From NCBI GenBank assembly GCA_049287045.1, contig JBAQFC010000011.1, positions 23,058 through 87,057 of the forward strand: DNA of 64,000 nt, in the 5' to 3' direction. Below the pieces are notes generated by a model. It had not been told where the DNA came from. It was given only the letters and a program-made list of their open reading frames with translations, and did not search any database. A program made the position numbers and the translations under genes. Below are positions 4,018 through 40,758 of the stretch, one piece after another; positions within the stretch are counted from its first letter, which is position 1, and every line of letters starts with the position of its first letter. The stretch comes from Minisyncoccia bacterium (lineage in GTDB: Bacteria > Patescibacteriota > Minisyncoccia > Phycocordibacterales > UBA9973).

Positions 4018-4770
4018 CTAAAAAAGAGACTTCAATGTCCACAATGCAATCAGGTCCAACTCTTCTTCTTTAGAAAAAACTTTCTTATATTTGGCACCTG
4101 ATTTACCTTTTACGCGTTTTTCGCACTCCGCCCAAGTTTTGTCAGCGAAAACTTTATCAGCAACCATTGATATATAGGAATAAGCCTGTTTACTTGAACT
4201 TGATTTCTTTGTTGATATTTTTTTTGCGACAGCGTGCTCGACATTCTCTGGCAATTCATAAACTTTTTTATATTCTTTTAAACTACCAGAAAAAAGTTTT
4301 ACTTTTTCTTCAAGACCAAAATCAGAAGCAATATCGTCACATCTTTCGTTTAAAGGATCACCGTTGTGTCCTTTTACTTTATTAAAAATGAGAGTGTTTT
4401 CAAGAGAAAGCTTTTCTTTATATAAACTCAACTCTTCCCAGTATTCTTTATTTAAAACATCCTGTTTGGCTTTAGTCTTCCAACCATTTGCTCGCCATCC
4501 TTCTATCCAGGAGGTTATTCCATTTAAAAGATAATTCGAATCTGAATATATGTTTACCTCTGCATTTTTAGGTTTTATTTTTGTAGCGACATATTTAATG
4601 CCTTCAATCATAGCCTGTAGCTCCATTTGGTTGTTGGTTGCCAACTTAACTCCGCCTCCAAGTTCCATGACTTCTTTGTCATCAATAATTATTATAGTTC
4701 CCCAGCCACCCTTGCCTGGGTTACCTTTTGCTGCTCCGTCTGTATGGATTATGATTTCATTAATAGACAT
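4018..4770 (-). CDS. rnhA: Ribonuclease HI with C-terminal hybrid-binding (Cauli_VI-like) domain
   Basis: The N-terminal 150 aa carry RNase H motifs (TDGA..GNPG, NQMELQA, YSDSNYL, VKGHNGDPLNERCD). The C-terminal segment YISMVADKVFADKTWAECEKRVKGKSGAKYKKVFSKEEE fits the HBD consensus (W.EC…GA.YKKF…EEA). Confidence 0.8.
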   Translation of the reverse strand: MSINEIIIHTDGAAKGNPGKGGWGTIIIIDDKEVMELGGGVKLATNNQMELQAMIEGIKYVATKIKPKNAEVNIYSDSNYLLNGITSWIEGWRANGWKTKAKQDVLNKEYWEELSLYKEKLSLENTLIFNKVKGHNGDPLNERCDDIASDFGLEEKVKLFSGSLKEYKKVYELPENVEHAVAKKISTKKSSSSKQAYSYISMVADKVFADKTWAECEKRVKGKSGAKYKKVFSKEEELDLIALWTLKSLF

Positions 4771-4772
4771 TT

Positions 4773-6533
4773 TTATAGTATATCAGTAATTCTTAATCTT
4801 AACTCTTCCCTACCGGCAAAATGAGACAAATCAAAAGTAGCCAGTAAATTTACACTAAGCCCTACAGCCAGAGGAGCTTTAAAAGAATCAATACTTGAGA
4901 AAAAGGAAATTGCTTTAATTTTATTTTTTCCATTATTACTTGCATCAGAAAAAATTATCTCTAAATGCTCACCGGAATTATTTTTACCGAATTTTTTTAA
5001 ATTTTCGATTTTTACCCCTTCAAAGAAAAATATTGGTTTAGGGTTGGCTAGACCGAACGGTGCTAACTTTTCTAAATCTCTCCAACTCCTCATATTAACA
5101 ATACTCAGACCTGCTTTTACATCGAAAGATATCTCTGTTTCTTTTTGATCACGTTTTAATTTTCCAAAGGCTAATGATAAACTTTCTTCTAGAAAATGTA
5201 TTTTTTTGTTATCGACAGTAAAACCACCTGCCATCTCATGCCCACCGAACTCCATAAAATATTCTCTTGTCTCAGTCATCAGTTCTACAACAGAGACTGA
5301 ACCTTCCGAACGACAAGACCCTTTTATGCAGTCATTCTCATCCCTACCCCATACGAAAACTGGTCTTTTATATTCATCACATATTTTACCTGCCACTAAT
5401 CCCAAAACCCCTACTCGCCATTCTGGGTTACCAATAACTATAACCTCTCTCATTTCACGCAGTTCAAATTTTTTACCAACCTCACGCATTATGTTTGCAA
5501 CGATTAATTTTCTATCGTCATTTATTTTAGAAAGATGTTTGGCGAGCATATCAGCCTCAACTAAGTCATTTGTCGCGAGTAATTCAAAAGCTCTCAGAGG
5601 GTTATCCATACGAGAAGCAGCATTCAAACGTGGGGCAATCATAAAACCAACATCATCTTCTGTAAGGTATCTCTGGTCGATACTCATTTTTGCTAAAAGT
5701 TTAACCAACCCTGGTCTAGGAGATTTTCTTAAAACTTTTATACCAAAACTCGCAATTGCGCGATTCTCACCCAAAAGTGGCACCATATCTGAAAGAGTTG
5801 CAAGACCTGCCATATCTAATAGCCATTTTTCCCAGCCAAGAGAGAGCGGGGTTAGTAATTTTGCAGACGAGGACTGTTTGAGCGTAGCGAGTTCCGCAGG
5901 CAAAAAATTACTAACCCCGCTCTCTCCTCGATAATAACTACCGTACTTTTTTAAAAAACCCTGTACAAGTTTAAAAGCCACGCCAGCACCGCATAGCATC
6001 TGCTCGGGATATTCATCCACTTTCGGATTTAAAATAGCGTATGCGTGTGGGAGGGTCGCTTGTGGGATATGATGGTCGGTGATGATTACATCAATACCAT
6101 CTACTTTTGCTTGGGCCACCTCTTCTACTGCAGTAATACCGAGATCTACGGTTATTAAAAGATTTACTCCACTTTCAGAAAATTGTTTTATAGCTGTAAG
6201 ATTCAAACCATAACCTTCAGAATTTCTTTGAGGAATATACACTTCAAAATTTGAGTAACCAATCTTTTTAAATAAGTCTTGCAAGATAACTGCCCCAGGA
6301 ATACCGTCACAATCATAATCCGCATAGATTACAATCTTTTCTCTAGCTTCCATCGCTTCAAAGATTCGTACACATGCCTTTTCCATATCACGCATCAAAA
6401 ATGGGTCATGTAAGTCACGTTCATAACTAGGATTCAAAAAAATCTCAGCCGATGCTTCATCGGTGATTCCTCTTTTTTGCAAAAGGGTTTGTATGAGTTC
6501 TGAATACTTTTCCATATAAGCAGAGTATAGCAA
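4773..6533 (-). CDS. recJ: Single-stranded-DNA-specific exonuclease RecJ (DHH/DHHA1)
   Basis: 586 aa; DHH motifs (YADYDCDGI, ITDHH) and a DHHA1-like GGHEMAGG motif. Confidence 0.85.
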   Translation of the reverse strand: MLYSAYMEKYSELIQTLLQKRGITDEASAEIFLNPSYERDLHDPFLMRDMEKACVRIFEAMEAREKIVIYADYDCDGIPGAVILQDLFKKIGYSNFEVYIPQRNSEGYGLNLTAIKQFSESGVNLLITVDLGITAVEEVAQAKVDGIDVIITDHHIPQATLPHAYAILNPKVDEYPEQMLCGAGVAFKLVQGFLKKYGSYYRGESGVSNFLPAELATLKQSSSAKLLTPLSLGWEKWLLDMAGLATLSDMVPLLGENRAIASFGIKVLRKSPRPGLVKLLAKMSIDQRYLTEDDVGFMIAPRLNAASRMDNPLRAFELLATNDLVEADMLAKHLSKINDDRKLIVANIMREVGKKFELREMREVIVIGNPEWRVGVLGLVAGKICDEYKRPVFVWGRDENDCIKGSCRSEGSVSVVELMTETREYFMEFGGHEMAGGFTVDNKKIHFLEESLSLAFGKLKRDQKETEISFDVKAGLSIVNMRSWRDLEKLAPFGLANPKPIFFFEGVKIENLKKFGKNNSGEHLEIIFSDASNNGKNKIKAISFFSSIDSFKAPLAVGLSVNLLATFDLSHFAGREELRLRITDIL

Positions 6534-7175: not shown

Positions 7176-7589
7176 ATGGAAGACTGTCTTTTCTGTAAAA
7201 TAATAAAAGGAGAAATACCCAGCGCAAAAGTTTATGAAAATGAAGATATCATCGCCTTTTTAGATCTTCACCCAGTGAATATCGGTCACACTCTGATTGT
7301 TCCTAAAAATCATTATGACAACCTTTATGATACTCCCGACGAAATTCTCTGTGAGATGATGAAACTAACCAAGAAACTAAGTATTGCGATAAAAAGTTCA
7401 ATGCATGCTGACGGTATAAATATTGAAATGAATAATGAAAAATCTGCAGGTCAGATTATAATGCATGCTCACTGGCATATCGTCCCCCGTTTCGGAGATG
7501 ATGGTTTTACTCATTGGCATGGCAAACGTCCATATAACGAAGGAGAAATGAGTAAAGTAGTGGAGGAAATTATCGCTGCTCTAAAATAA
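7176..7589 (+). CDS. HIT-family (histidine triad) hydrolase
   Basis: 137 aa; contains the HAHWHIVPR histidine triad. Confidence 0.8.
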   Translation: MEDCLFCKIIKGEIPSAKVYENEDIIAFLDLHPVNIGHTLIVPKNHYDNLYDTPDEILCEMMKLTKKLSIAIKSSMHADGINIEMNNEKSAGQIIMHAHWHIVPRFGDDGFTHWHGKRPYNEGEMSKVVEEIIAALK

Positions 7590-7686
7590 CAAGAACCTAA
7601 TTTCATAATGCACGGATATTTTTCTGCTGAAAAATTCCTCGTACTCACGCCGTCGCGCTCGCAAGTCATTATGAAATTAGTTCTTG

Positions 7687-8751
7687 CTATTTTAGAGCCT
7701 TGATACCCGGCAAAGTTCCATTAGCCAAAAAATCCAAAGTGGCTCCTCCACCAGTAGAAACAAAAGTAAAATCTTTTTCCATTTTATTTTGAGAAATAAG
7801 AGCAACAGTATCGCCTCCCCCAATAATGCTTTCAGCTTTTGAGCTAGCTACTATTTTAAGAATTTTTTTAGTTGCTCCTCCACCTATCGCTTCATATTTA
7901 CCAAGGGGTCCGTTCCAAAGAACGAGTTTTGATTTTTTTATGTATGGCTCAATCATTTTGATTGATTCACTACCAATGTCTAAAATAGTTTCACTTTTTG
8001 TTACTTCACTAACTTTTTTATTTATTAGTTTGTCACCATCTTTGACTACTACATCAATAGGTAAAATTAATTTTTTATTTTTTAAGATTTTCTCAATCCC
8101 ATAGCCTGTATCATCTACAAGTGACTTGCCTACTTCATACCCTTCTGCTTTTAAAAAGTCATCCAGTAACGCGCCACCAATAAAGACGTAATCAGCTAGT
8201 TTTAAATATTTTTTAATCAAAGGCATTTTCGTAGAAAACTTTGCTCCACCTAAAATAAAAAGAAATGGGTGTTTTGGATTTTTAATGGCTTTTGATAGAT
8301 TTTTTACTTCCAGTTCTAGTTGAAAACCAGCATAAGATGGCAAATACTTAGGTAAACCAACAATCGAAGCATGTGCTCTATGTGAAACAGAAAAAGCATC
8401 ATTTACGTATATATCACCAAGAGAAGCCAGCTCTTTAGCAAAAGCTGGATCGTTCTTTTCTTCTCCTGGGGATTTTCTAATATTTTCGTAAAAAATTATT
8501 TCTGATTTCTTGAATTTAGATATCTTAAAAAATGATTTTATGACTGGCTCAAGACTATCACTACCATCTTTACCTAAATGAGTTATCAAAACTATTTTTG
8601 CACCTTTCTTATACAAGAATTCTATTGTAGGTAAAGATTTTCTTATTCTAAAATCATCCTGCACCTTTCCATCTTTAATCGGTACATTAAAATCAACTCG
8701 TACTAATACGACTTTGCCTTTAATATTTTTTATTTGTTTAATTGATTGCAT
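7687..8751 (-). CDS. pgk: Phosphoglycerate kinase
   Basis: 354 aa with PGK motifs (RVDFNVP, FILGGAKFSTK, GGGDT). Confidence 0.9.
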   Translation of the reverse strand: MQSIKQIKNIKGKVVLVRVDFNVPIKDGKVQDDFRIRKSLPTIEFLYKKGAKIVLITHLGKDGSDSLEPVIKSFFKISKFKKSEIIFYENIRKSPGEEKNDPAFAKELASLGDIYVNDAFSVSHRAHASIVGLPKYLPSYAGFQLELEVKNLSKAIKNPKHPFLFILGGAKFSTKMPLIKKYLKLADYVFIGGALLDDFLKAEGYEVGKSLVDDTGYGIEKILKNKKLILPIDVVVKDGDKLINKKVSEVTKSETILDIGSESIKMIEPYIKKSKLVLWNGPLGKYEAIGGGATKKILKIVASSKAESIIGGGDTVALISQNKMEKDFTFVSTGGGATLDFLANGTLPGIKALK

Positions 8752-8802
8752 ATATTTTATTTTCTACGAAAATTATTTTTTAAAAATTTCACACTAGCGT
8801 TG

Positions 8803-8915
8803 TATTACACGAAAAGTATTTTTTAAAAAGCATTGCACAGGCCGACGGGCCGAGCATAGCAATCCGCCAGCAGGCGGATATGTGCGGTTTTTAAAAGATA
8901 CTTTTCGTAGTAATA
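8803..8915. repeat. Extended-hairpin intergenic repeat, copy 1 of 4
   Basis: Conserved core AAAAAGCATTGCACAGGCCGACGGGCCGAGCATAGCAA…TGTGCGGTTTTTAAAAGATA. The outer stem cgaaaagtat/atacttttcg pairs, and the apical hairpin is tccgcc-agca-ggcgga. Confidence 0.8.
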
Positions 8916-9655
8916 CTTATAATTTCTGTAAACTTTTTTGGGTCTAAACTATCACGTCCGACAAGGAAACCATCTGCGCCTTCTTGTAAAAATCCAAGTG
9001 CATTCTCTGGATGAACCGATCCTCCATAAATTATTCTAGTTTGTTCAATCATCTTAGCTCCAAATTTATCATTCAAAATTTTCTTTATAAAAATGCTCAT
9101 TTCTCTAAATTCTTCAGGGGTCGCTTCTCTGGTAGCATTTTTACCAATAGCCCAAACAGGTTCATAAGCAATAATAATTTTTGAAATTAAATTTCTAGAA
9201 ACTCCTGCCAAACATTCCTCAATCTGAGTCGTTACAAAATTTAAATATTCATGATTTTCATCTCGAACACTTTCTCCAACACACAAAATTGGTATCAATC
9301 CAACAGACATGGATTGTTTTATTTTTTTATTTATATCTTCATTTATTTCACCAAGAGCTCGTCTTTCAGAGTGTCCTAAAATAACATACTTTGCACCGAT
9401 ATTTAAAAGCATATCAGCAGATACTTCTCCGGTATAAGCACCCTTCTCTTCCCAGAAAGTATCTTGCCCACCCAGACTGACCTTCTTTGATAATTTCTTT
9501 AAGTTTTCTAAATATATAAATGGAGGACAAACCACTACTTCAGTTTTTGTTTTTGTGTCTAAATTTTTTAAAATTAGCTTGAAAATATTCTCTGCTTCCT
9601 TTTTTGTAGAGGGGTTCATTTTCCAGTTACCTATGACTATTTTCTTCTTTTGCAT
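8891..9655 (-). CDS. tpiA: Triosephosphate isomerase
   Basis: The TIM sequence begins at MQKKKIVIGNWKMN (start near 9655). The ORF-track extension out to 9739 runs through two terminator hairpins and is rejected. Confidence 0.88.
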   Translation of the reverse strand: MQKKKIVIGNWKMNPSTKKEAENIFKLILKNLDTKTKTEVVVCPPFIYLENLKKLSKKVSLGGQDTFWEEKGAYTGEVSADMLLNIGAKYVILGHSERRALGEINEDINKKIKQSMSVGLIPILCVGESVRDENHEYLNFVTTQIEECLAGVSRNLISKIIIAYEPVWAIGKNATREATPEEFREMSIFIKKILNDKFGAKMIEQTRIIYGGSVHPENALGFLQEGADGFLVGRDSLDPKKFTEIISITTKSIF

Positions 9656-9679
9656 AAAAGCATTATACCAAAAATAAAA

Positions 9680-9760
9680 CCCCGTCGCTCGCAAATGACG
9701 GGGCTTATAAATAATTAGGTAAATAAAAACCCCCGACAACGATTGTTGTCGGGGGTTGAA
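9680..9760 (-). terminator. Two tandem intrinsic terminators downstream of the 9770-11251 gene
   Basis: Hairpins ccccgtcgctcgcaaatgacgggg and cccccgacaacgattgttgtcggggg, each followed by a U-run on the minus strand. Confidence 0.6.
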
Positions 9761-17608: not shown

Positions 17609-17698
17609 AACATAATTATATACTTTTTAAAAAAACAAAACAATAAAAATTAACAAGGATGTGGAAAACTGTTCACAAAATTCATCACACGAAACTTT

Positions 17699-17743
17699 CC
17701 CCGACCCCCGGGATAGGGGATTCCCCTATCCCGGGGGTCGGGG
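17699..17743. repeat. 45-nt perfect GC-rich palindrome in the divergent region upstream of nusA
   Basis: ccccgacccccgggatagggga-t-tcccctatcccgggggtcgggg; it shares the core taggggattccccta with the palindrome at 1080. Confidence 0.8.
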
Positions 17744-17802
17744 AAGTTGGTCTTTTAAAGATATTGACTTTTTTGACCAAATAAAATAACATATTAAGTA
17801 TT

Positions 17803-21188: not shown

Positions 21189-21303
21189 GACTGAGGAACA
21201 TGTACTGATTAACAAAAAAACCGGCCATTAGGTCGGTTTTTAGTTTTAATAAATTAAAATAAAAAAATCCCAAGACTGTCATAAGACAATCCTGGGATTT
21301 GAA

Positions 21304-22143
21304 CTATAAATGTAAAAATACGTAGCCCTTTATCGACTTGGATTCTTGACTATATCCGATTCCCAATAAAGCACCTAAATGCTCAATTGAAAAACTTTTA
21401 AAAATTCCCCATTCACCTCGGATCAATTTCCAATTGTTGGAATTAAAACCAACATCTGAATAAACTGACAACCCATGTGTTTTTGGAATTTCCAAAATAT
21501 CAAGAACTCCTGCATTCTGTTTATTATTAAACACAACGACAGTTGAGAAAAATTTGTAGCTTAAATTTAAAGCTCCACCAAATGTTTTCGACTGCGCCAT
21601 GTAATAACCAGCAATTTGCGCATTAGGAATCTTTATACCAAATTCAGTTGAAGCATCGTTGCTTCTCCAGAACTCTCCTGCAATAAGTGAAAAGTTTTTT
21701 GCATTCAAAGTAACTTTTCCACCCATTGCTGAGCCCAATATCTGAGCTTTTGTCCATGGTTCAAACTGACCACTTCCAGAAGTTGGTATTGGGCGAAGTT
21801 CTGTCATCGGTGTTGCTATTTTCCCGACTGTTATAAAAACAGTTTTGCAAGGAGAAAACTTTGCACCAATAAGAGAAAAAGGTGTTACTGTTCCTGTTTG
21901 ATCAATTTCACCTGCTCCTAATCCAGTCAATAAAAAAAACTTGTTAGGCTTCCATGTAACCATGCCACCAGCTCTCAACGTCACAAACCCAAGTGCTTTT
22001 GAATTTTCAGTGGATAATTTTGGACCACCAAGCACCCCAAGATATGTCGTTGCACTAGTATGATTAATCGAATCGTTATATACCACTTGTCCATAAGAAC
22101 AAACAGAAATAATCGTTGTAAACAATATTGCTATATTTTTCAT
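21304..22143 (-). CDS. Secreted hypothetical protein
   Basis: 279 aa with a signal peptide (MKNIAILFTTIISVCSYGQ). Confidence 0.45.
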   Translation of the reverse strand: MKNIAILFTTIISVCSYGQVVYNDSINHTSATTYLGVLGGPKLSTENSKALGFVTLRAGGMVTWKPNKFFLLTGLGAGEIDQTGTVTPFSLIGAKFSPCKTVFITVGKIATPMTELRPIPTSGSGQFEPWTKAQILGSAMGGKVTLNAKNFSLIAGEFWRSNDASTEFGIKIPNAQIAGYYMAQSKTFGGALNLSYKFFSTVVVFNNKQNAGVLDILEIPKTHGLSVYSDVGFNSNNWKLIRGEWGIFKSFSIEHLGALLGIGYSQESKSIKGYVFLHL

Positions 22144-22181
22144 TTTTTAAAGTATTTAAAAGTTAATAAATCAATTTAATT

Positions 22182-23441
22182 TTAAATTAGATTGATTATA
22201 ACTTTAGGAACACCATCGATATCAAGCAAAAAACCTTTCATGGTTTTCCAAACTTGATTCGTAAAATAAATAATATATATTGTTGACGAATTAACAATCC
22301 GGACCAATGGAACAATAACAGCTTCATAATATGAAACATCGATATGAAAGCTATTCCCCACATCATGATCAATTCCTCCATTATCAATATTTGTAATATG
22401 AATAATAGTACCAAAAGAAGCTGCTGGAATTATCATTCTCGGTGTAATTACCAGACACAAAATAACAACAAGTGCTAAAGCAAATGAATGCTTCCGCACC
22501 ATGCCAATATTTTCCAAATGTTCACGAAATTCTTTAAGTGACATTTTTTTACCAATCTCAACCAGTTTTTTATCTGATCTTGAAAGGAGAGAAAACATAT
22601 TCTTGCGTCTTGATAAAACTTCAACCTTTCTTAAGGTTTCGTTCAGACGATTTCGGATATCTATCCACAAAATTATAGGCCAAAATAAAAGAGAAACTAT
22701 AAAAGATAAAGGTGCAAAACCAAAATTAAATTCTGGTTTTTTCCTATCTATATACTGCCAATAAGTTTCTTCAACTTCCTTTTTGAATTTAATTCTCCAA
22801 ATAAGAAACAATAAGAAAGCAACCGGCAATCCTCTCATATAAATATTTTTAAGCCAAGTAATAATAGGCATAAAAATATCAGACCAAAATCTTACAGGTG
22901 GAACCAATAATTCTCTTGCTACGTCAGAAGGAAACCAATATCGTCTAGCTTCTTCTATACTCATGATTTTTCTCATATATCCCGAGTGCTGTGTATGATT
23001 TTGAGCAGCAAGTCCGTCTACATCAATTTTTCTCCAATTCTCATCGCGGAGATTAACTAATTGACCTTTTGAACTCATACCCATACCTGAAATACATGAA
23101 ATTATTACACACCTTCCATTCCCTGTTTTATTTAATGAATCTAGATAAACTTTTTCAAACATTTCATATTGTTTAAGGTCACGAAAATACAGATACGGAT
23201 CATATACTCCGGTTTTTTGTATTAATCGTGTTCTTTCTTGCACCAAACTGTCTCCATAAGCAATAGCATTGTTTGGATTCATTTCAAGTGTCGCAATTTC
23301 TGAACTATCAAATGTGTGAATACTGTACTTTTCAGATTCACCAAAATTAAATTTATGAAACTGTGTAAATATTCCTGTGGTCCATATGAAGCCAACAGGA
23401 ATTAAAAGGTACCGTAGTACCCATAATATTGTTGATTTCAT
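22182..23441 (-). CDS. Polytopic membrane protein
   Basis: 419 aa with multiple hydrophobic segments. Confidence 0.5.
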   Translation of the reverse strand: MKSTILWVLRYLLIPVGFIWTTGIFTQFHKFNFGESEKYSIHTFDSSEIATLEMNPNNAIAYGDSLVQERTRLIQKTGVYDPYLYFRDLKQYEMFEKVYLDSLNKTGNGRCVIISCISGMGMSSKGQLVNLRDENWRKIDVDGLAAQNHTQHSGYMRKIMSIEEARRYWFPSDVARELLVPPVRFWSDIFMPIITWLKNIYMRGLPVAFLLFLIWRIKFKKEVEETYWQYIDRKKPEFNFGFAPLSFIVSLLFWPIILWIDIRNRLNETLRKVEVLSRRKNMFSLLSRSDKKLVEIGKKMSLKEFREHLENIGMVRKHSFALALVVILCLVITPRMIIPAASFGTIIHITNIDNGGIDHDVGNSFHIDVSYYEAVIVPLVRIVNSSTIYIIYFTNQVWKTMKGFLLDIDGVPKVIINLI

Positions 23442-23600
23442 ATTTATATATTTTTAATTTTTCAAAGGGCAAATTTGAGCCGATTTAAACCCGTAGGTAT
23501 TGAAGGCGGTTTCTACCTTCAACCTTTGCATTATATATCTTTTTTGACAAAAAGTCAAGACCAGACAGGGCTACTGAAGGTTACCCATCGTAGAATATTT

Positions 23601-23700
23601 AAGAAGTGTAACTTTTAAAAAGCATTGCACAGGCCGACGGGCCGAGCATAGCAAATTTTCAGCAGAAAATTATGTGCGGTTTTTAAAAGATATACTTCTA
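23601..23700. repeat. Extended-hairpin intergenic repeat, copy 2 of 4
   Basis: Same conserved core as copy 1. The apical hairpin is aattttc-agca-gaaaatt, a compensatory change relative to copy 1. The outer stem is gaagtgta/tatacttc. Confidence 0.8.
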
Positions 23701-23729
23701 AAATATTCTTTCAAATAAAAACACCAAAC

Positions 23730-23763: not shown

Positions 23764-24363
23764 ATGTTAATACCAACCGTTATTGAGAAAAGCCAATTTG
23801 GAGAGAGAGCTTATGACATTTATTCACGTCTTTTACGAGATCGAATCATATTTTTAAGTGGTCCTATTGATGATAATACTGCAAACATTGTCATCGCTCA
23901 GCTTCTGTTTCTTGAATCTGAAGATGCAAAAAAGGATATTTATCTTTACATAAACTCACCCGGTGGATCAGTCACTTCAACTATGGCAATGGTAGACACC
24001 ATGAACCATGTTCGTCCTGATATTGCCACTTTCTGTGTAGGTATCGCAGCTTCTGGTGCAGCTATTGTTTTGTCAGCCGGTAAAAAAGGTAAAAGATTTA
24101 TATTACCAAATGCTGAAATTATGATTCATCAACCTTCAGGCGGAGTGGAAGGTCAGGCCACAGATATAGAAATCACTGCTAAGCATATCCTAAAAACAAG
24201 AAACAACTTAAATAAACTATTGGCCAAAAACACAGGAAAAACTCTTGCCCAAATAGAAAAAGATGTAGAGCGTGATTTCTACATGGACGCAGAAGAAGGT
24301 AAAAAATACGGTATCATCGACGAAATCGTTACAAAATCCAAAGCCGTCACCAACAAAGATTAA
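23764..24363 (+). CDS. clpP: ATP-dependent Clp protease proteolytic subunit
   Basis: 199 aa containing the [13 protein letters not shown] (Ser) and MIHQPSGG (His) active-site motifs. Confidence 0.92.
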
Positions 24364-38497: not shown

Positions 38498-39004
38498 TTA
38501 TTTCACACCAAACAAATATTTTCTAGGATTTTCAGATAGATCTACGAAGTCATCAGCCACTTCACGAAGTTTTGCAGAAGTAGATTTCCCAAAGGAAATC
38601 ACTTCCACCTGTGTCATAGTCTGAAGATATTCTACTAATGGTACGAAGTCCCCATCACCCGAAACAATAACAATAGTATCTAGGCGTGGAGCGTTTTTAA
38701 TCGCATCAACAGCTAGACCAACATCCCAATCTCCCTTCTTTGTTCCAGTATGAAAAATTTGTAAATCCTTGGTTTTGGTTTCAATACCAAGCTTGGTCAA
38801 TGCTTCAAAAAAATTCTTTTCCTCACCAGCTTCTGTCGTGATGACATATGCTACGGCTCGGACAAGTTTTCTTCCTGCCACCGCTTCTTTTAAAACTGCT
38901 CCGAAATTCACTCTAGCTTTATATAAATTTCGTGCACTGTGATACAAATTTTGTGTATCAATAAAAACTCCAACTCTCTGTTCTTTATGTTTAATTACTG
39001 TCAT
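38498..39004 (-). CDS. NYN-domain (LabA-like) protein
   Basis: 168 aa with RVGVFIDTQNLYHSA…VIVSGDGDF (PIN-like NYN); it lies between rpsO and pnp. Confidence 0.7.
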   Translation of the reverse strand: MTVIKHKEQRVGVFIDTQNLYHSARNLYKARVNFGAVLKEAVAGRKLVRAVAYVITTEAGEEKNFFEALTKLGIETKTKDLQIFHTGTKKGDWDVGLAVDAIKNAPRLDTIVIVSGDGDFVPLVEYLQTMTQVEVISFGKSTSAKLREVADDFVDLSENPRKYLFGVK

Positions 39005-39081
39005 ATATAAAAATTATTCTAATAATAAAAAATACCGACCTATCAAGATTATAGCACTTTTATAAAAACCACTGTTAATGA

Positions 39082-39262
39082 GAAGTAAAGTATTTTTTAA
39101 AAAGCATTACGCCGTCCACAGGTGCACATCAATATCCGATGTGCCAGGCCGACGGGCCGAGCATAGCAAATTTTTGATTCTGCAGAATCATGCCGCGCAA
39201 TGTCCATTGAGGCGCGGCCAGTATTTTTTTATGTGTGGTTTTTAAAAGATACTTTACTTTGA
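39082..39262. repeat. Extended-hairpin intergenic repeat, copy 3 of 4 (with inserted extra hairpins)
   Basis: The core aaaaagcatt…aggccgacgggccgagcatagcaaa…tgtgtggtttttaaaag is retained but interrupted by ggtgcacatc…gatgtgcc and gccgcgc…gcgcggc hairpins. The outer stem is gtaaagtat/atactttac. Confidence 0.75.
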
Positions 39263-39287
39263 AATTAACCTAAAAAAACCAAACAAA

Positions 39288-39316
39288 AAATCTCCGCCAG
39301 AAGCGGAGATTTTTTA
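39288..39316. terminator. Bidirectional terminator downstream of rpsO
   Basis: Hairpin tctccgc-caga-agcggaga with U-runs on both strands. Confidence 0.6.
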
Positions 39317-39325
39317 TTGTTTGAT

Positions 39326-39595
39326 TTAAGCTAAACCCATTTTCTTCATTAGAGCGTCATAACGAGGTTTACTCTTTCTCATTAGATACTTTAAGTGAGT
39401 TCTTCTGTCGGCAACCATTTTGATTAAACCACGACGAGAATGAAGATCCTTTTTATGTTTCTTTAAGTGTTTTGCTAGTTCATCAATCTGAGTGGACAAA
39501 ACAGCAACCTGAACCTCGGAAGATCCTGTGTCTTTGTCGTGAACTTGATTTTTCTTTATAACTGCTTGCTTTTTCTTTGTAGTTAACATGTGCAT
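39326..39595 (-). CDS. rpsO: 30S ribosomal protein S15
   Basis: 89 aa S15 (…HSRRGLIKMVADRRTHLKYL…). Confidence 0.88.
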   Translation of the reverse strand: MHMLTTKKKQAVIKKNQVHDKDTGSSEVQVAVLSTQIDELAKHLKKHKKDLHSRRGLIKMVADRRTHLKYLMRKSKPRYDALMKKMGLA

Positions 39596-39649
39596 ATCTT
39601 AGCACAAACACGTAAAAATTGCAAATGATAGAAAATAGTCTTTCTGACC

Positions 39650-39674
39650 TTCCCCTACACCTGGTGTAGGGGAA
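39650..39674. repeat. 25-nt perfect GC-rich palindrome
   Basis: ttcccctacacc-t-ggtgtaggggaa; shares the tcccct/agggga ends with the palindromes at 1080 and 17699. Confidence 0.7.
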
Positions 39675-39678
39675 TTTT

Positions 39679-39785
39679 GAGAAATAAAGTATTTTTTAAA
39701 AAGCATTGCACAGGCCGACGGGCCGAGCATAGCAAATTTTCAGCAGAAAATTATGTGCGGTTTTTAAAAGATATTTTGTTTTCTC
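39679..39785. repeat. Extended-hairpin intergenic repeat, copy 4 of 4
   Basis: Core identical to copy 2, including the aattttc-agca-gaaaatt apical hairpin. Confidence 0.8.
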
Positions 39786-39837
39786 AAAAAATAAGAAACA
39801 AAAGTATGTCGCACAATATTTCTGTTATAATTAAATT

Positions 39838-40758
39838 ATGGTTTCTGAAATCGAACAGCTAAAAAGAGAATACTTGGAACACATGGAAATCGAAAAGGGT
39901 TCCAGTTTGAAGACCATAGAAAACTATGAACGATACATGACACGTTTTTTGGATTTCGCAAAAATAAAAACTGCAAAAGAAATCACTGACGAGCTAGTTC
40001 GAAACTTCCGATTATTTTTAAACCGCCAATCTGCCGGCAACAATCGCGCGACTGGAGCGACTCTCAAGAAAAAAACTCAAAATTATTATTTGATTGCTCT
40101 ACGTTCATTTTTGAAATATCTTGCAAAGAGAGACATCACTTCCCTATCAGCTGAACGCATCGATTTAGCAAAAGTTCCCGAGCGTTCTCTCGATCTCATC
40201 TCTTCACAAGATTTAGACAGACTGCTCGCTGCACCCGAAGGTAACGATTTAAAATCTCTTCGTGATCGAGCCATTTTACAATTATTGTTTTCAACTGGTC
40301 TTCGTGTTTCAGAATTATGTTCACTGACACGAGACATTGATTTTTCGACAGATGAATTTTCAATCAGAGGAAAAGGTGGCAAAGTGCGAGTTGTTTTTAT
40401 TTCAGATGAAGCGAGAAGGGATGTAAATAATTATTTAAAAAAACGAGATGATATGGATGATGCTTTGTTCGTAAAAGTTGATCTTGAAAAAGCGACGAAA
40501 GAAAAGGAAGCTCTTGCTCGTAGATCAATAGAAAGAATTGTAAAATATTATGCGATCAAAGCAGGTATTTCTAAAAAAGTTACTCCCCATATCATACGCC
40601 ACTGTTTCGCGACTGATCTCCTGCAAAATGGCGCAGACATCCGCAGTGTACAAATAATGCTAGGACATTCAAGTATTTCCACCACACAGATCTACACACA
40701 TATAACCGATAAACAACTAAGAGAGGTTCATAAAAAATTTCATTCTAAAAGAGAATAA
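39838..40758 (+). CDS. xerC: Tyrosine recombinase XerC/XerD
   Basis: 306 aa with the C-terminal catalytic motifs (HIIRHCFATDLL…LGHSSISTTQIYTH). Confidence 0.85.
   Translation: MVSEIEQLKREYLEHMEIEKGSSLKTIENYERYMTRFLDFAKIKTAKEITDELVRNFRLFLNRQSAGNNRATGATLKKKTQNYYLIALRSFLKYLAKRDITSLSAERIDLAKVPERSLDLISSQDLDRLLAAPEGNDLKSLRDRAILQLLFSTGLRVSELCSLTRDIDFSTDEFSIRGKGGKVRVVFISDEARRDVNNYLKKRDDMDDALFVKVDLEKATKEKEALARRSIERIVKYYAIKAGISKKVTPHIIRHCFATDLLQNGADIRSVQIMLGHSSISTTQIYTHITDKQLREVHKKFHSKRE

Follow-up and report, generated by a model that had tools for sequence, protein, structure and literature searches.

Miniature inverted-repeat transposable elements, or MITEs, are small repeats defined by fixed terminal inverted repeats matching those of a parent insertion sequence (IS) and by direct target-site duplications such as TA. 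For the palindromic elements of Rickettsia, to our knowledge, no transposase is known. These Rickettsia palindromic elements (RPEs) are not confined to intergenic DNA; with unusual frequency they also lie in frame in unrelated housekeeping genes, to which they add peptide (PMC10969869). The 64,000-nucleotide window analyzed here, positions 23,058 to 87,057 of contig JBAQFC010000011.1 from a Minisyncoccia bacterium of the Patescibacteriota, contains five copies of a repeat of approximately 100-180 nt, or one copy per 13 kb. The element is probably a mobile hairpin, akin to the RPEs, that is non-coding, non-autonomous and structure-dependent, spreads in copy-and-paste fashion while its flank is copied by fold-back, and has a folded core of 57 nt, not a set of terminal inverted repeats, as the unit that defines it. 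The family appears to be undescribed; it extends across the superphylum and enters essential genes.

An initial annotation of the window had listed four copies of an extended-hairpin repeat built on a common core. All four are real, and the common core is present as claimed: the 25-mer CAGGCCGACGGGCCGAGCATAGCAA is found without change at 8838, 23630, 39145 and 39711, always on the plus strand, where shuffled sequences lead one to expect none, and in each copy it is followed by the 3′ block ATGTGCGGTTTTTAAAAGATA (at 8880, 23672, 39231 with one mismatch, and 39753). The count fell short by one, as a covariance model recovers a fifth, diverged copy on the minus strand (copy 5; see Table 1 for all coordinates). 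The minimum free energies of the four plus-strand copies are -53.1, -36.2, -36.8 and -66.8 kcal/mol, with z-scores of -6.7 to -10.3 against shuffles, and in all four the plus strand folds 6-14 kcal/mol better than the minus strand. The apical stems (tccgcc-AGCA-ggcgga and aattttc-AGCA-gaaaatt) and outer stems quoted in the annotation are found as written, and each copy does form a long hairpin, but not a simple one, since the outer stem closes a three-way junction.

Consensus folding of 35 copies with RNAalifold yields a long outer stem, P1, enclosing the 57-nt three-way junction with two further helices, P2 and P3. P2 consists of P2a (UGC/GCA), an internal loop with RCA opposite GA, and a 4-bp P2b closed by a GACG loop; a UA linker leads to P3, which is made up of GCR/YGY, a bulged A, a variable 7-bp stem and a loop that is mostly AGCA. 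The GACG and AGCA loops, the GA internal loop, the bulged A and the strands CAUUGC and GAGCAUAGC are invariant. Double changes occur in 24 of the 34 pairs in this set. A covariance model built from the same number of copies was used to align 88 matches (84 distinct) from the window, genomes and metagenomes. Among the 84 distinct copies paired cells amount to 95.8%, versus 71.7% in shuffles (none of 500 reaches the observed value), the covariation score is 0.616 versus 0.179, and both-sided changes are found in 24 of 28 pairs; when the partners are slid by 1-3 columns, pairing falls to 38-55%. As this alignment is fitted to the model and hence biased toward the structure, P2b was addressed separately and free of ascertainment, by a metagenome scan in which the flanking core was fixed, P2b was left free and position 41, canonically G, was forced to be any other base. 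Approximately 41 genuine elements were recovered, with all four P2b pairs Watson-Crick in 36, one G.U pair in 3 and one mismatch in 2, while 13 chance matches are unpaired at P2b. The stems include GUGC/GCAC, GCGC/GCGC, GCCC/GGGC, GAGC/GCUC, GUCC/GGAC and GUAU/AUAC, always with a constant GACG loop. Furthermore, diverged copies vary helices that are otherwise constant, with the base of P3 changing from GCA/UGU to GGA/UCC or GAA/UUC. The maintenance of all four helices by compensatory change is strongly supported, and the proposal of a structure conserved in this manner, originally made from four copies, is borne out well beyond them by the RNAalifold consensus, the 84-copy count and the forced P2b scan.

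The structure also has a preferred strand. The plus strand folds better than the minus strand in 37 of 38 copies, and the P1 helices of 37 copies contain 46 G.U pairs and 6 A.C mismatches when read as plus strand, as opposed to 19 and 23 when read as minus strand. In P3, the G59.U84 pair is a wobble in 34 of the 84 copies. The wobble bias favors a single-stranded form of the plus strand, RNA or DNA alike, and is suggestive only because the copies are related rather than independent.

For the distribution of the family, a 20-nt piece of the core was searched in a collection of species-representative genomes. The 41 loci obtained comprise 38 in AT-rich Patescibacteria sequence and 3 chance matches in GC-rich coding DNA, and the hosts are assigned to Paceibacterota, Minisyncoccia, Nomurabacteria, Taylorbacteria, Saccharibacteria and the 'Parcubacteria group', with further occurrences in metagenomes. 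The sister genome JAVHNX01 carries at least 11 copies, and viral contigs contain no core match. Two of the fetched loci, which are referred to here by L numbers, are AT-rich, element-bearing contigs of a metagenome-assembled genome (MAG) labelled Burkholderiales (L013 and L041); L041 is 77-80% identical to a Paceibacterota locus, and both are probably mis-binned Patescibacteria contigs. In the longer subfamilies a conserved distal module, which the window copies lack, lies outside P1 and is accompanied each time by another outer stem. Examples are 5′ GCGAGG / 3′ CCGAGC, with potential tandem G.A pairs, and CTCGTTGCAGGCG / GCCAAGAAAGAG, and such modules are seen at L012, L016, L032, L035, L013, L018, L027 and L028 and in metagenome loci L047, L055, L057, L059, L061, L071 and L093. 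Three genomes have the element directly beside a DnaA-box-like sequence (TTATCCACA and variants; L014 ~2150-2200, L031 ~2700-2780, L038 ~2350-2400), and these copies may be located next to a replication origin.

The annotation had not recognized the repeat as a known family, and this agrees with the Rfam searches: the window returns only four tRNAs at the gathering threshold, region 38900-39900 returns nothing on the element with an E-value below 0.1 at a permissive threshold, and no Rfam family, including the known self-cleaving ribozymes, gives the element a gathering-threshold score. Topic and sequence searches of the literature found neither the element nor its core sequence described. A small open reading frame (ORF) was ruled out as the basis of conservation, as neither the insertions of 33 and 44 nt nor the compensatory changes in the stems have a codon-like pattern. 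A retron-like RNA was likewise ruled out because the G at position 30, where P1 ends, is not conserved, half of the copies having A there. The defining motifs of hammerhead, twister and K-turn are not present, as judged by eye rather than by test.

Strong covariation in all helices, together with invariant loops, would also be expected from a host-functional structured RNA, or from a DNA or RNA protein-binding site, that is selected at each locus and for which mobility provides only the seeding. Candidate host roles include a processing site for RNase III or another enzyme, a terminator-insulator, and a platform for a conserved Patescibacteria protein. The better folding of the plus strand, with G.U pairs outnumbering A.C mismatches, is in line with such a role, as are the conserved distal tandem G.A motif in some of the longer subfamilies and the presence of a near-identical core at the same site in distant genomes where the flanking intergenic DNA is unalignable. 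The placement of the copies argues against it. Orientation relative to the flanking ORFs is random, with 10, 9, 9 and 7 copies in the four classes; the four plus-strand copies of the window all lie upstream of a minus-strand gene, and this pattern is not kept elsewhere. The neighboring genes have no common function. Those in the window are pgk, tpiA, clpP and rpsO as had been stated, which is weak information given a genome this small. Simple scans of the region ~7400-9100 found no promoter or terminator consensus inside copies 5 and 1. An orientation tied to the direction of replication is also unsupported, since copies 5 and 1, separated by 1.1 kb, point in opposite directions and the GC skew does not switch between them.

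The copies inside genes are also difficult to reconcile with a host-functional RNA. Of approximately 83 copies, 13 are in frame inside uninterrupted ORFs, 12 of these in sense orientation. The host genes, named by Pfam with the exception of UvrD, for which the name given by the source was used, are UvrD, KsgA, RsmE, a DHH/RecJ-like protein, RecO, an M1-peptidase C-terminal domain, TsaD (twice, at the same site), RecG-like proteins (once in the helicase domain and twice in the wedge domain) and one ORF without a Pfam hit that was read as a glycosyltransferase. Use of the sense frames is skewed, as the frame encoding SIAQxDGxSIA is used 10 times and the frame encoding HCxxRRxEHS twice, the third being closed by the stop in CATAGC. 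The in-gene copies are apparently translated, as indicated by these open frames. Searching proteins with the two peptides that the element encodes gave no candidates, within the limits of the word index used. In uvrD, the insertion is canonical in the window genome and in JAVHNX01. Many homologs at 75-83% identity have it in a decayed but recognizable form that keeps the frame open, one homolog at 90% identity has lost part of it, and others lack it, such that the core has decayed in several uvrD lineages. In the AlphaFold model of the window-genome UvrD (mean predicted local distance difference test score, pLDDT, of 67), the insert forms a coil at residues 346-378 with pLDDT below 50, located between a helix and the AILYR strand.

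Comparison of related genomes adds a further argument. JAVHNX01, represented by loci L033, L037 and L042, is the closest available relative and is 88-97% identical to the window over syntenic stretches. It has orthologs of copies 1 and 4 only, with copies 2, 3 and 5 missing, and in L043, which is more distantly related, copies 2-4 are all lacking. Presence and absence between genomes approximately 90% identical would not be expected of a selected host RNA. At the L042 site orthologous to copy 3 there is nothing of the element, and the same expanded interior is found with 90% identity at a non-homologous JAVHNX01 locus, L033. The extra hairpins reported for copy 3 are present, though they number three, in two insertion blocks, rather than two, and expansions at other loci (including L033, L012 and L028) occur in the same two places. 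Orthologous copies, for their part, differ in their interiors. The ortholog of copy 1 (L037:778-866) keeps the outer arms around a different interior, the comparison revealing one additional hairpin and a P3 pair that differs in a compensatory manner (C-G to U-A), and the ortholog of copy 4 (L042:1008-1099) has P2b GGCU/AGCC in place of GGCC/GGCC and a wholly different P3. Core variants are genome-specific, with A37 in the window, G37 in 9 of 10 simple JAVHNX01 copies, and A37 together with AUGCGUGG in H43-bin105. The shared interiors at non-homologous loci, the differing orthologs and the genome-specific variants imply that interiors are spread or homogenized within a genome, and such signatures of concerted evolution or bursts count against selection at each locus. 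The random orientation, the presence/absence polymorphism at approximately 90% identity and the 13 in-frame copies mean that an mRNA stabilizer resembling the repetitive extragenic palindromes (REPs), a terminator-insulator or a cis-acting protein site, all of them roles suggested by the initial annotation, fit poorly, and a primary role of this kind is not supported. A functional RNA is possible, but it is rather unlikely and less likely than the mobile hairpin element. A separate case concerns inversion: the whole element, including its asymmetric outer loop, occupies the same intergenic site in opposite orientations in two related genomes, at L018 204-296 (minus) and L041 41-133 (plus). This suggests that it was either inverted in place by way of its long arms or inserted independently.

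How the mobile hairpin enters a site can be read from pairs of filled and empty alleles. For copy 5, the empty site in L037 reads ...GGTATCAAGGCCTT|AAATTAGGTTCTTGCTATTTTAGAGCAG, comprising the old pgk stop, seven bases and the complement of the last codons of the HIT-family gene, and the filled site in the window reads ...GGTATCAAGGCTCT + AAAATAGCAAGAACTAATTT + CATAATGAC-core-GTGCATTATG + AAATTAGGTTCTTGTTATTTTAGAGCAG. The native end of the HIT gene serves as the 3′ arm and has been copied in inverted form to give the 5′ arm, which now provides the last codons and the stop of pgk. For copy 2, the empty site in L042 is ...CGTAGAATA|TTTTAAAAGTTACACTTCTAAAATATTC and the filled site is ...CGTAGAATA + TTTAAGAAGTGTAACTTTTAAAA + AGCATTGC-core-GCGGT + TTTTAAAAGATATACTTCTAAAATATTC. 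Here the 5′ arm is an inverted copy of approximately 22 nt of the 3′ flank, which stands alone in L042, and this arm resembles the L042 flank (GTTACAC) more closely than does the 3′ arm now in the window (GATATAC). The insert is built alike at both sites: 20-25 nt of the 3′ flank, copied in inverted orientation, are joined to the core, which may bring along a few stem pairs of the donor. In each case the copied arm is the 5′ one, and the junction overlap is 3 nt only (AAA, TTT). Both targets already held a small inverted repeat, of 11 nt at the copy 2 site. The check for target-site duplication, run at these two pairs, found no direct repeat beyond the 3-nt overlap. The outermost stems, cited by the annotation as covarying, are in the two testable cases an inverted duplication of flanking target DNA and not the result of compensatory evolution. 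In UvrD, the ILS that natively precedes EVAILYR has its mirror image, GQD, on the opposite side of the insert, which is consistent with inverted copying of the flank. Outer arms differ between copies within one genome, and the inner P1 alone is shared (about TTTTAAAA; 19 bp in window copies 1, 3 and 4). On our reading of these sequences, P1 would be composed of an inner part that comes from the donor and, optionally, an outer part taken from the target. Long palindromes already present at the target were ruled out as insertion sites for the in-gene copies, and the intergenic targets held only a small inverted repeat. Other pairs were too diverged for the junctions to be read (L002 versus L033/L026; copy 4 versus L043), and L058 versus L073, considered as an empty site, is a complex nested polymorphism rather than a clean pair.

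In the mechanism proposed for the mobile hairpin, a DNA 3′ end at an A/T-rich target would switch to the donor core, present as single-stranded DNA (ssDNA) or RNA, and copy it, the template switch being aided by microhomology with the self-complementary A/T-rich inner P1 (TTTTAAAA). The new strand would then snap back on its own hairpin, copy the target flank backwards and rejoin the original template at a short homology, leaving a locus-specific extension of P1. Fold-back copying of this kind would account for the locus-specific stems, variable length, fixed polarity, junction overlaps and lack of target duplication. It does not explain why loops and junction strands are constant across the superphylum, and these imply that the core either has a specific protein as partner or is put to use by the host. 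The putative trans-acting partner would be structure-specific and could be a nuclease, a Y1/HUH-type transposase or a reverse transcriptase. No recurrent neighbor gene qualifies as a transposase, the recurring neighbors being syntenic housekeeping genes only, and where pairs of copies bracket genes as a mobile unit might, the bracketed genes are ordinary ones, e.g., rpsP and holB-like. Long hairpins at gene ends, new C-termini and extra protein loops are treated here as side effects on the neighboring genes.

Two rival explanations, unlikely even when taken together, name an enzyme for the same mobile element. The first is a hairpin of the REP/REPIN or IS200/IS605 type that moves as ssDNA by means of a Y1 (HUH) transposase (RAYT/TnpA) encoded elsewhere. 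The lack of both target duplication and terminal inverted repeats of fixed sequence is shared with such systems, as is a strand-specific structure with conserved hairpin loops and bulges, and a Y1_Tnp/RAYT-like gene is present in the sister genome (Pfam PF01797, 32.6 bits versus a cutoff of 23). However, this gene is flanked by three copies of another hairpin, ACTTGGGAGTTCAACTCCCAAGT, which is not in the window, and tblastn with it finds no homolog in the window, nor in any of the 98 further loci fetched, element-bearing ones included. In addition, REPs are extragenic whereas the element is also inside genes, peel-and-paste transposition leaves the inverted flank copy unexplained, and the opposite orientation of copies 5 and 1 without a GC-skew switch between them is not what such transposition would favor. 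Movement by a Y1 transposase is accordingly considered improbable. The gene itself is situated in a 1.36-kb island of JAVHNX01 contig 7 (L037 4790-6148) that is missing from the window (corresponding site 4764-4789) and contains a 113-aa ORF and the 217-aa Y1_Tnp/RAYT-like transposase; the hairpin ACTTGGGAGTT(C/G)AACTCCCAAGT, found neither in the window nor in other fetched loci, brackets the island in three copies.

The second is a retroelement resembling short interspersed nuclear elements (SINEs), in which the folded RNA is read by a reverse transcriptase, the cDNA is primed at a target nick and snap-back gives the inverted flank copy. Reverse transcriptases of the group II intron, diversity-generating retroelement (DGR) and retron types are common in these bacteria, and snap-back is known for reverse transcriptases. 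A structure that is strand-specific and tolerant of G.U pairs, modular RNA-like loop expansions (copy 3, L033, L012, L028) and a fixed polarity, with the copied arm at the 5′ side in both clean cases, would all suit such a route. Against it, no reverse transcriptase gene is seen near the copies, neither a poly-A or other 3′ tail nor an own promoter is found, the RNA is not retron-like at position 30, and no test applied here separates RNA from ssDNA. This is the least probable of the explanations considered. A more tentative extension of the preferred mobile hairpin is that it represents a new mobile class specific to Patescibacteria, in which the 57-nt fold is read by a putative structure-specific enzyme and an inverted flank copy builds the terminal stem anew at each site, with the core alternatively or additionally co-opted as a binding or processing site; this is possible, though doubtful.

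Several observations weigh against a mobile hairpin that copies its flank. The clean filled/empty pairs number only two, gain and loss are not polarizable, and deletion between short direct repeats could in principle yield the 'empty' alleles. Two lineages have similar flanks but unrelated arms in TsaD, which means that arms are not always target-derived and that part of P1 either travels with the element or changes fast. The neighborhoods of the 88 copies contain no transposase, reverse transcriptase or other partner, and the single RAYT-like gene seen is bracketed by a hairpin of a different kind. Old shared sites exist upstream of serS (three genomes), in the yidC-jag gap (three), upstream of fpg (two) and in uvrD, and copies at shared sites have near-identical cores in genomes only 70-80% identical; this, like conservation of the core across classes of the superphylum, could equally reflect selection for a host function. 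The wobble bias (46 versus 19), a soft count, fits RNA and ssDNA without discriminating between them.

Table 1. The five copies of the element in the 64,000-nt window, with their parts and adjacent genes.
Copy	Coordinates	Strand	P1 arms	Core	Score (bits)	Internal features	Adjacent genes
1	8803-8915	+	8803-8830 / 8888-8915	8831-8887	101.8	P3 of type UCCGCC-AGCA-GGCGGA	3′ arm overlaps last codons and stop of tpiA (8891-9739, -)
2	23592-23709	+	23592-23621 / 23680-23709	23623-23679	99.6		gene without assigned function (22182-23441, -); clpP (23764-24363, +)
3 (expanded variant)	39082-39262	+	39083-39106 / 39236-39259		35	P2b at 39147-39158; extra hairpins at 39122-39144 in the P2 internal loop, and at 39176-39189 and 39192-39218 replacing the P3 loop; base of P3 weakened	
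4	39675-39789	+	39675-39702 / 39762-39789	39704-39760	102.2		rpsO (39326-39595, -); xerC/D-like integrase gene (39838-40758, +)
5 (diverged)	7571-7705	-	7571-7596 / 7680-7705	7611-7666	55.2 (covariance-model match 7592-7684, E 5e-14)	P2b GCGC/GCGU; P3 base GGA/UCC	convergent: HIT-family gene (7176-7589, +); pgk (7687-8751, -)

Other features adjoin the copies in the window. A bidirectional hairpin resembling an intrinsic terminator, AAAAAATCTCCGCC-AGAA-GCGGAGATTTTTT, is located at 39283-39320 downstream of rpsO, between this gene and copy 3, so that the element is not the rpsO terminator. In the region 21244-23560, two minus-strand genes adjoining copy 2 (21304-22143 and 22182-23441) are without a match in Pfam, NCBIfam or PADLOC; only this genome has them between tig and clpP, and they are missing from L042 and L043. 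A second repeat family consists of perfect GC-rich palindromes with variable arms, built on TCCCCTA / TAGGGGA motifs, and is found in the window at 1080-1126, 17697-17745 and 39650-39674 and in L042 at ~1500-1555. One of these palindromes adjoins copy 4, and another fills the sister-genome site of window copy 3.

The genomes of Patescibacteria are tiny, streamlined and thought to be repeat-poor, and one copy per 13 kb in the window contradicts this picture. A span from Saccharibacteria to Paceibacteria, extra loops in DNA-repair and RNA-modification enzymes and remodelled gene ends make the element a real force in genome evolution. It is also a likely cause of assembly breaks and mis-called gene ends in MAGs. 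A conserved center with locus-specific ends and an inverted target duplication is the reverse of the usual transposon logic and points to a putative structure-specific enzyme or a replication-based copying route. For RNA discovery the family carries a warning, in that excellent covariation alone does not mean a host-functional RNA.

Among known systems, the RPEs resemble the element in being short (~100-150 bp) palindromic non-coding repeats of a reduced genome. The in-frame palindromic repeat in coding genes is found here as well, in the 13 open ORFs among approximately 83 copies, mostly in one frame and in sense orientation and apparently translated, with decayed uvrD copies still open and the UvrD insert placed in a low-confidence loop. 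The hosts are of another phylum, Patescibacteria rather than Rickettsiales, and the sequences are probably unrelated, such that the likeness is one of analogy; the element differs further in its central, covarying three-way-junction core with constant loops, its superphylum-wide occurrence and an outer stem that is partly made from the target. MITEs such as Correia/NEMIS, ERIC and RUP are likewise small, multicopy, non-coding and mostly intergenic, form long hairpins when transcribed and change gene ends, and an in-place inversion is possible for them as for L018 and L041. The element shares the small non-coding multicopy form and the presence/absence polymorphism, and a MITE-like nature was the closest of the functions first proposed for it. 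However, its termini are locus-specific and its center is conserved, there are no common terminal inverted repeats matching a parent IS, no parent IS lies near the 88 copies, and the two filled/empty pairs have an inverted rather than a direct duplication.

The REP, BIME and REPIN-RAYT systems and the IS200/IS605 palindromes have in common with the element a one-strand hairpin structure without terminal inverted repeats or target duplication, and a RAYT-like gene is present in the sister genome. The element, in contrast, is without a conserved 5′ GTAG-type leader motif, occurs also in genes and forms a three-way junction rather than an imperfect palindrome, and is on these grounds not a REP; nor is a cognate RAYT flanked by the same repeats found, as the one RAYT-like gene seen carries a distinct hairpin of its own. 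Template switching has been discussed for bacterial inverted repeats (PMC5941160). Quasi-palindrome template switching resembles the present case in that one arm is written from the other and short junction homologies (TTT, AAA) are involved, but it is a mutational process and not an element, and alone it fails to explain a 57-nt core conserved across the superphylum. By analogy with these systems, the element may be filed as a selfish palindromic repeat of unusual architecture, with a conserved center and target-built ends.

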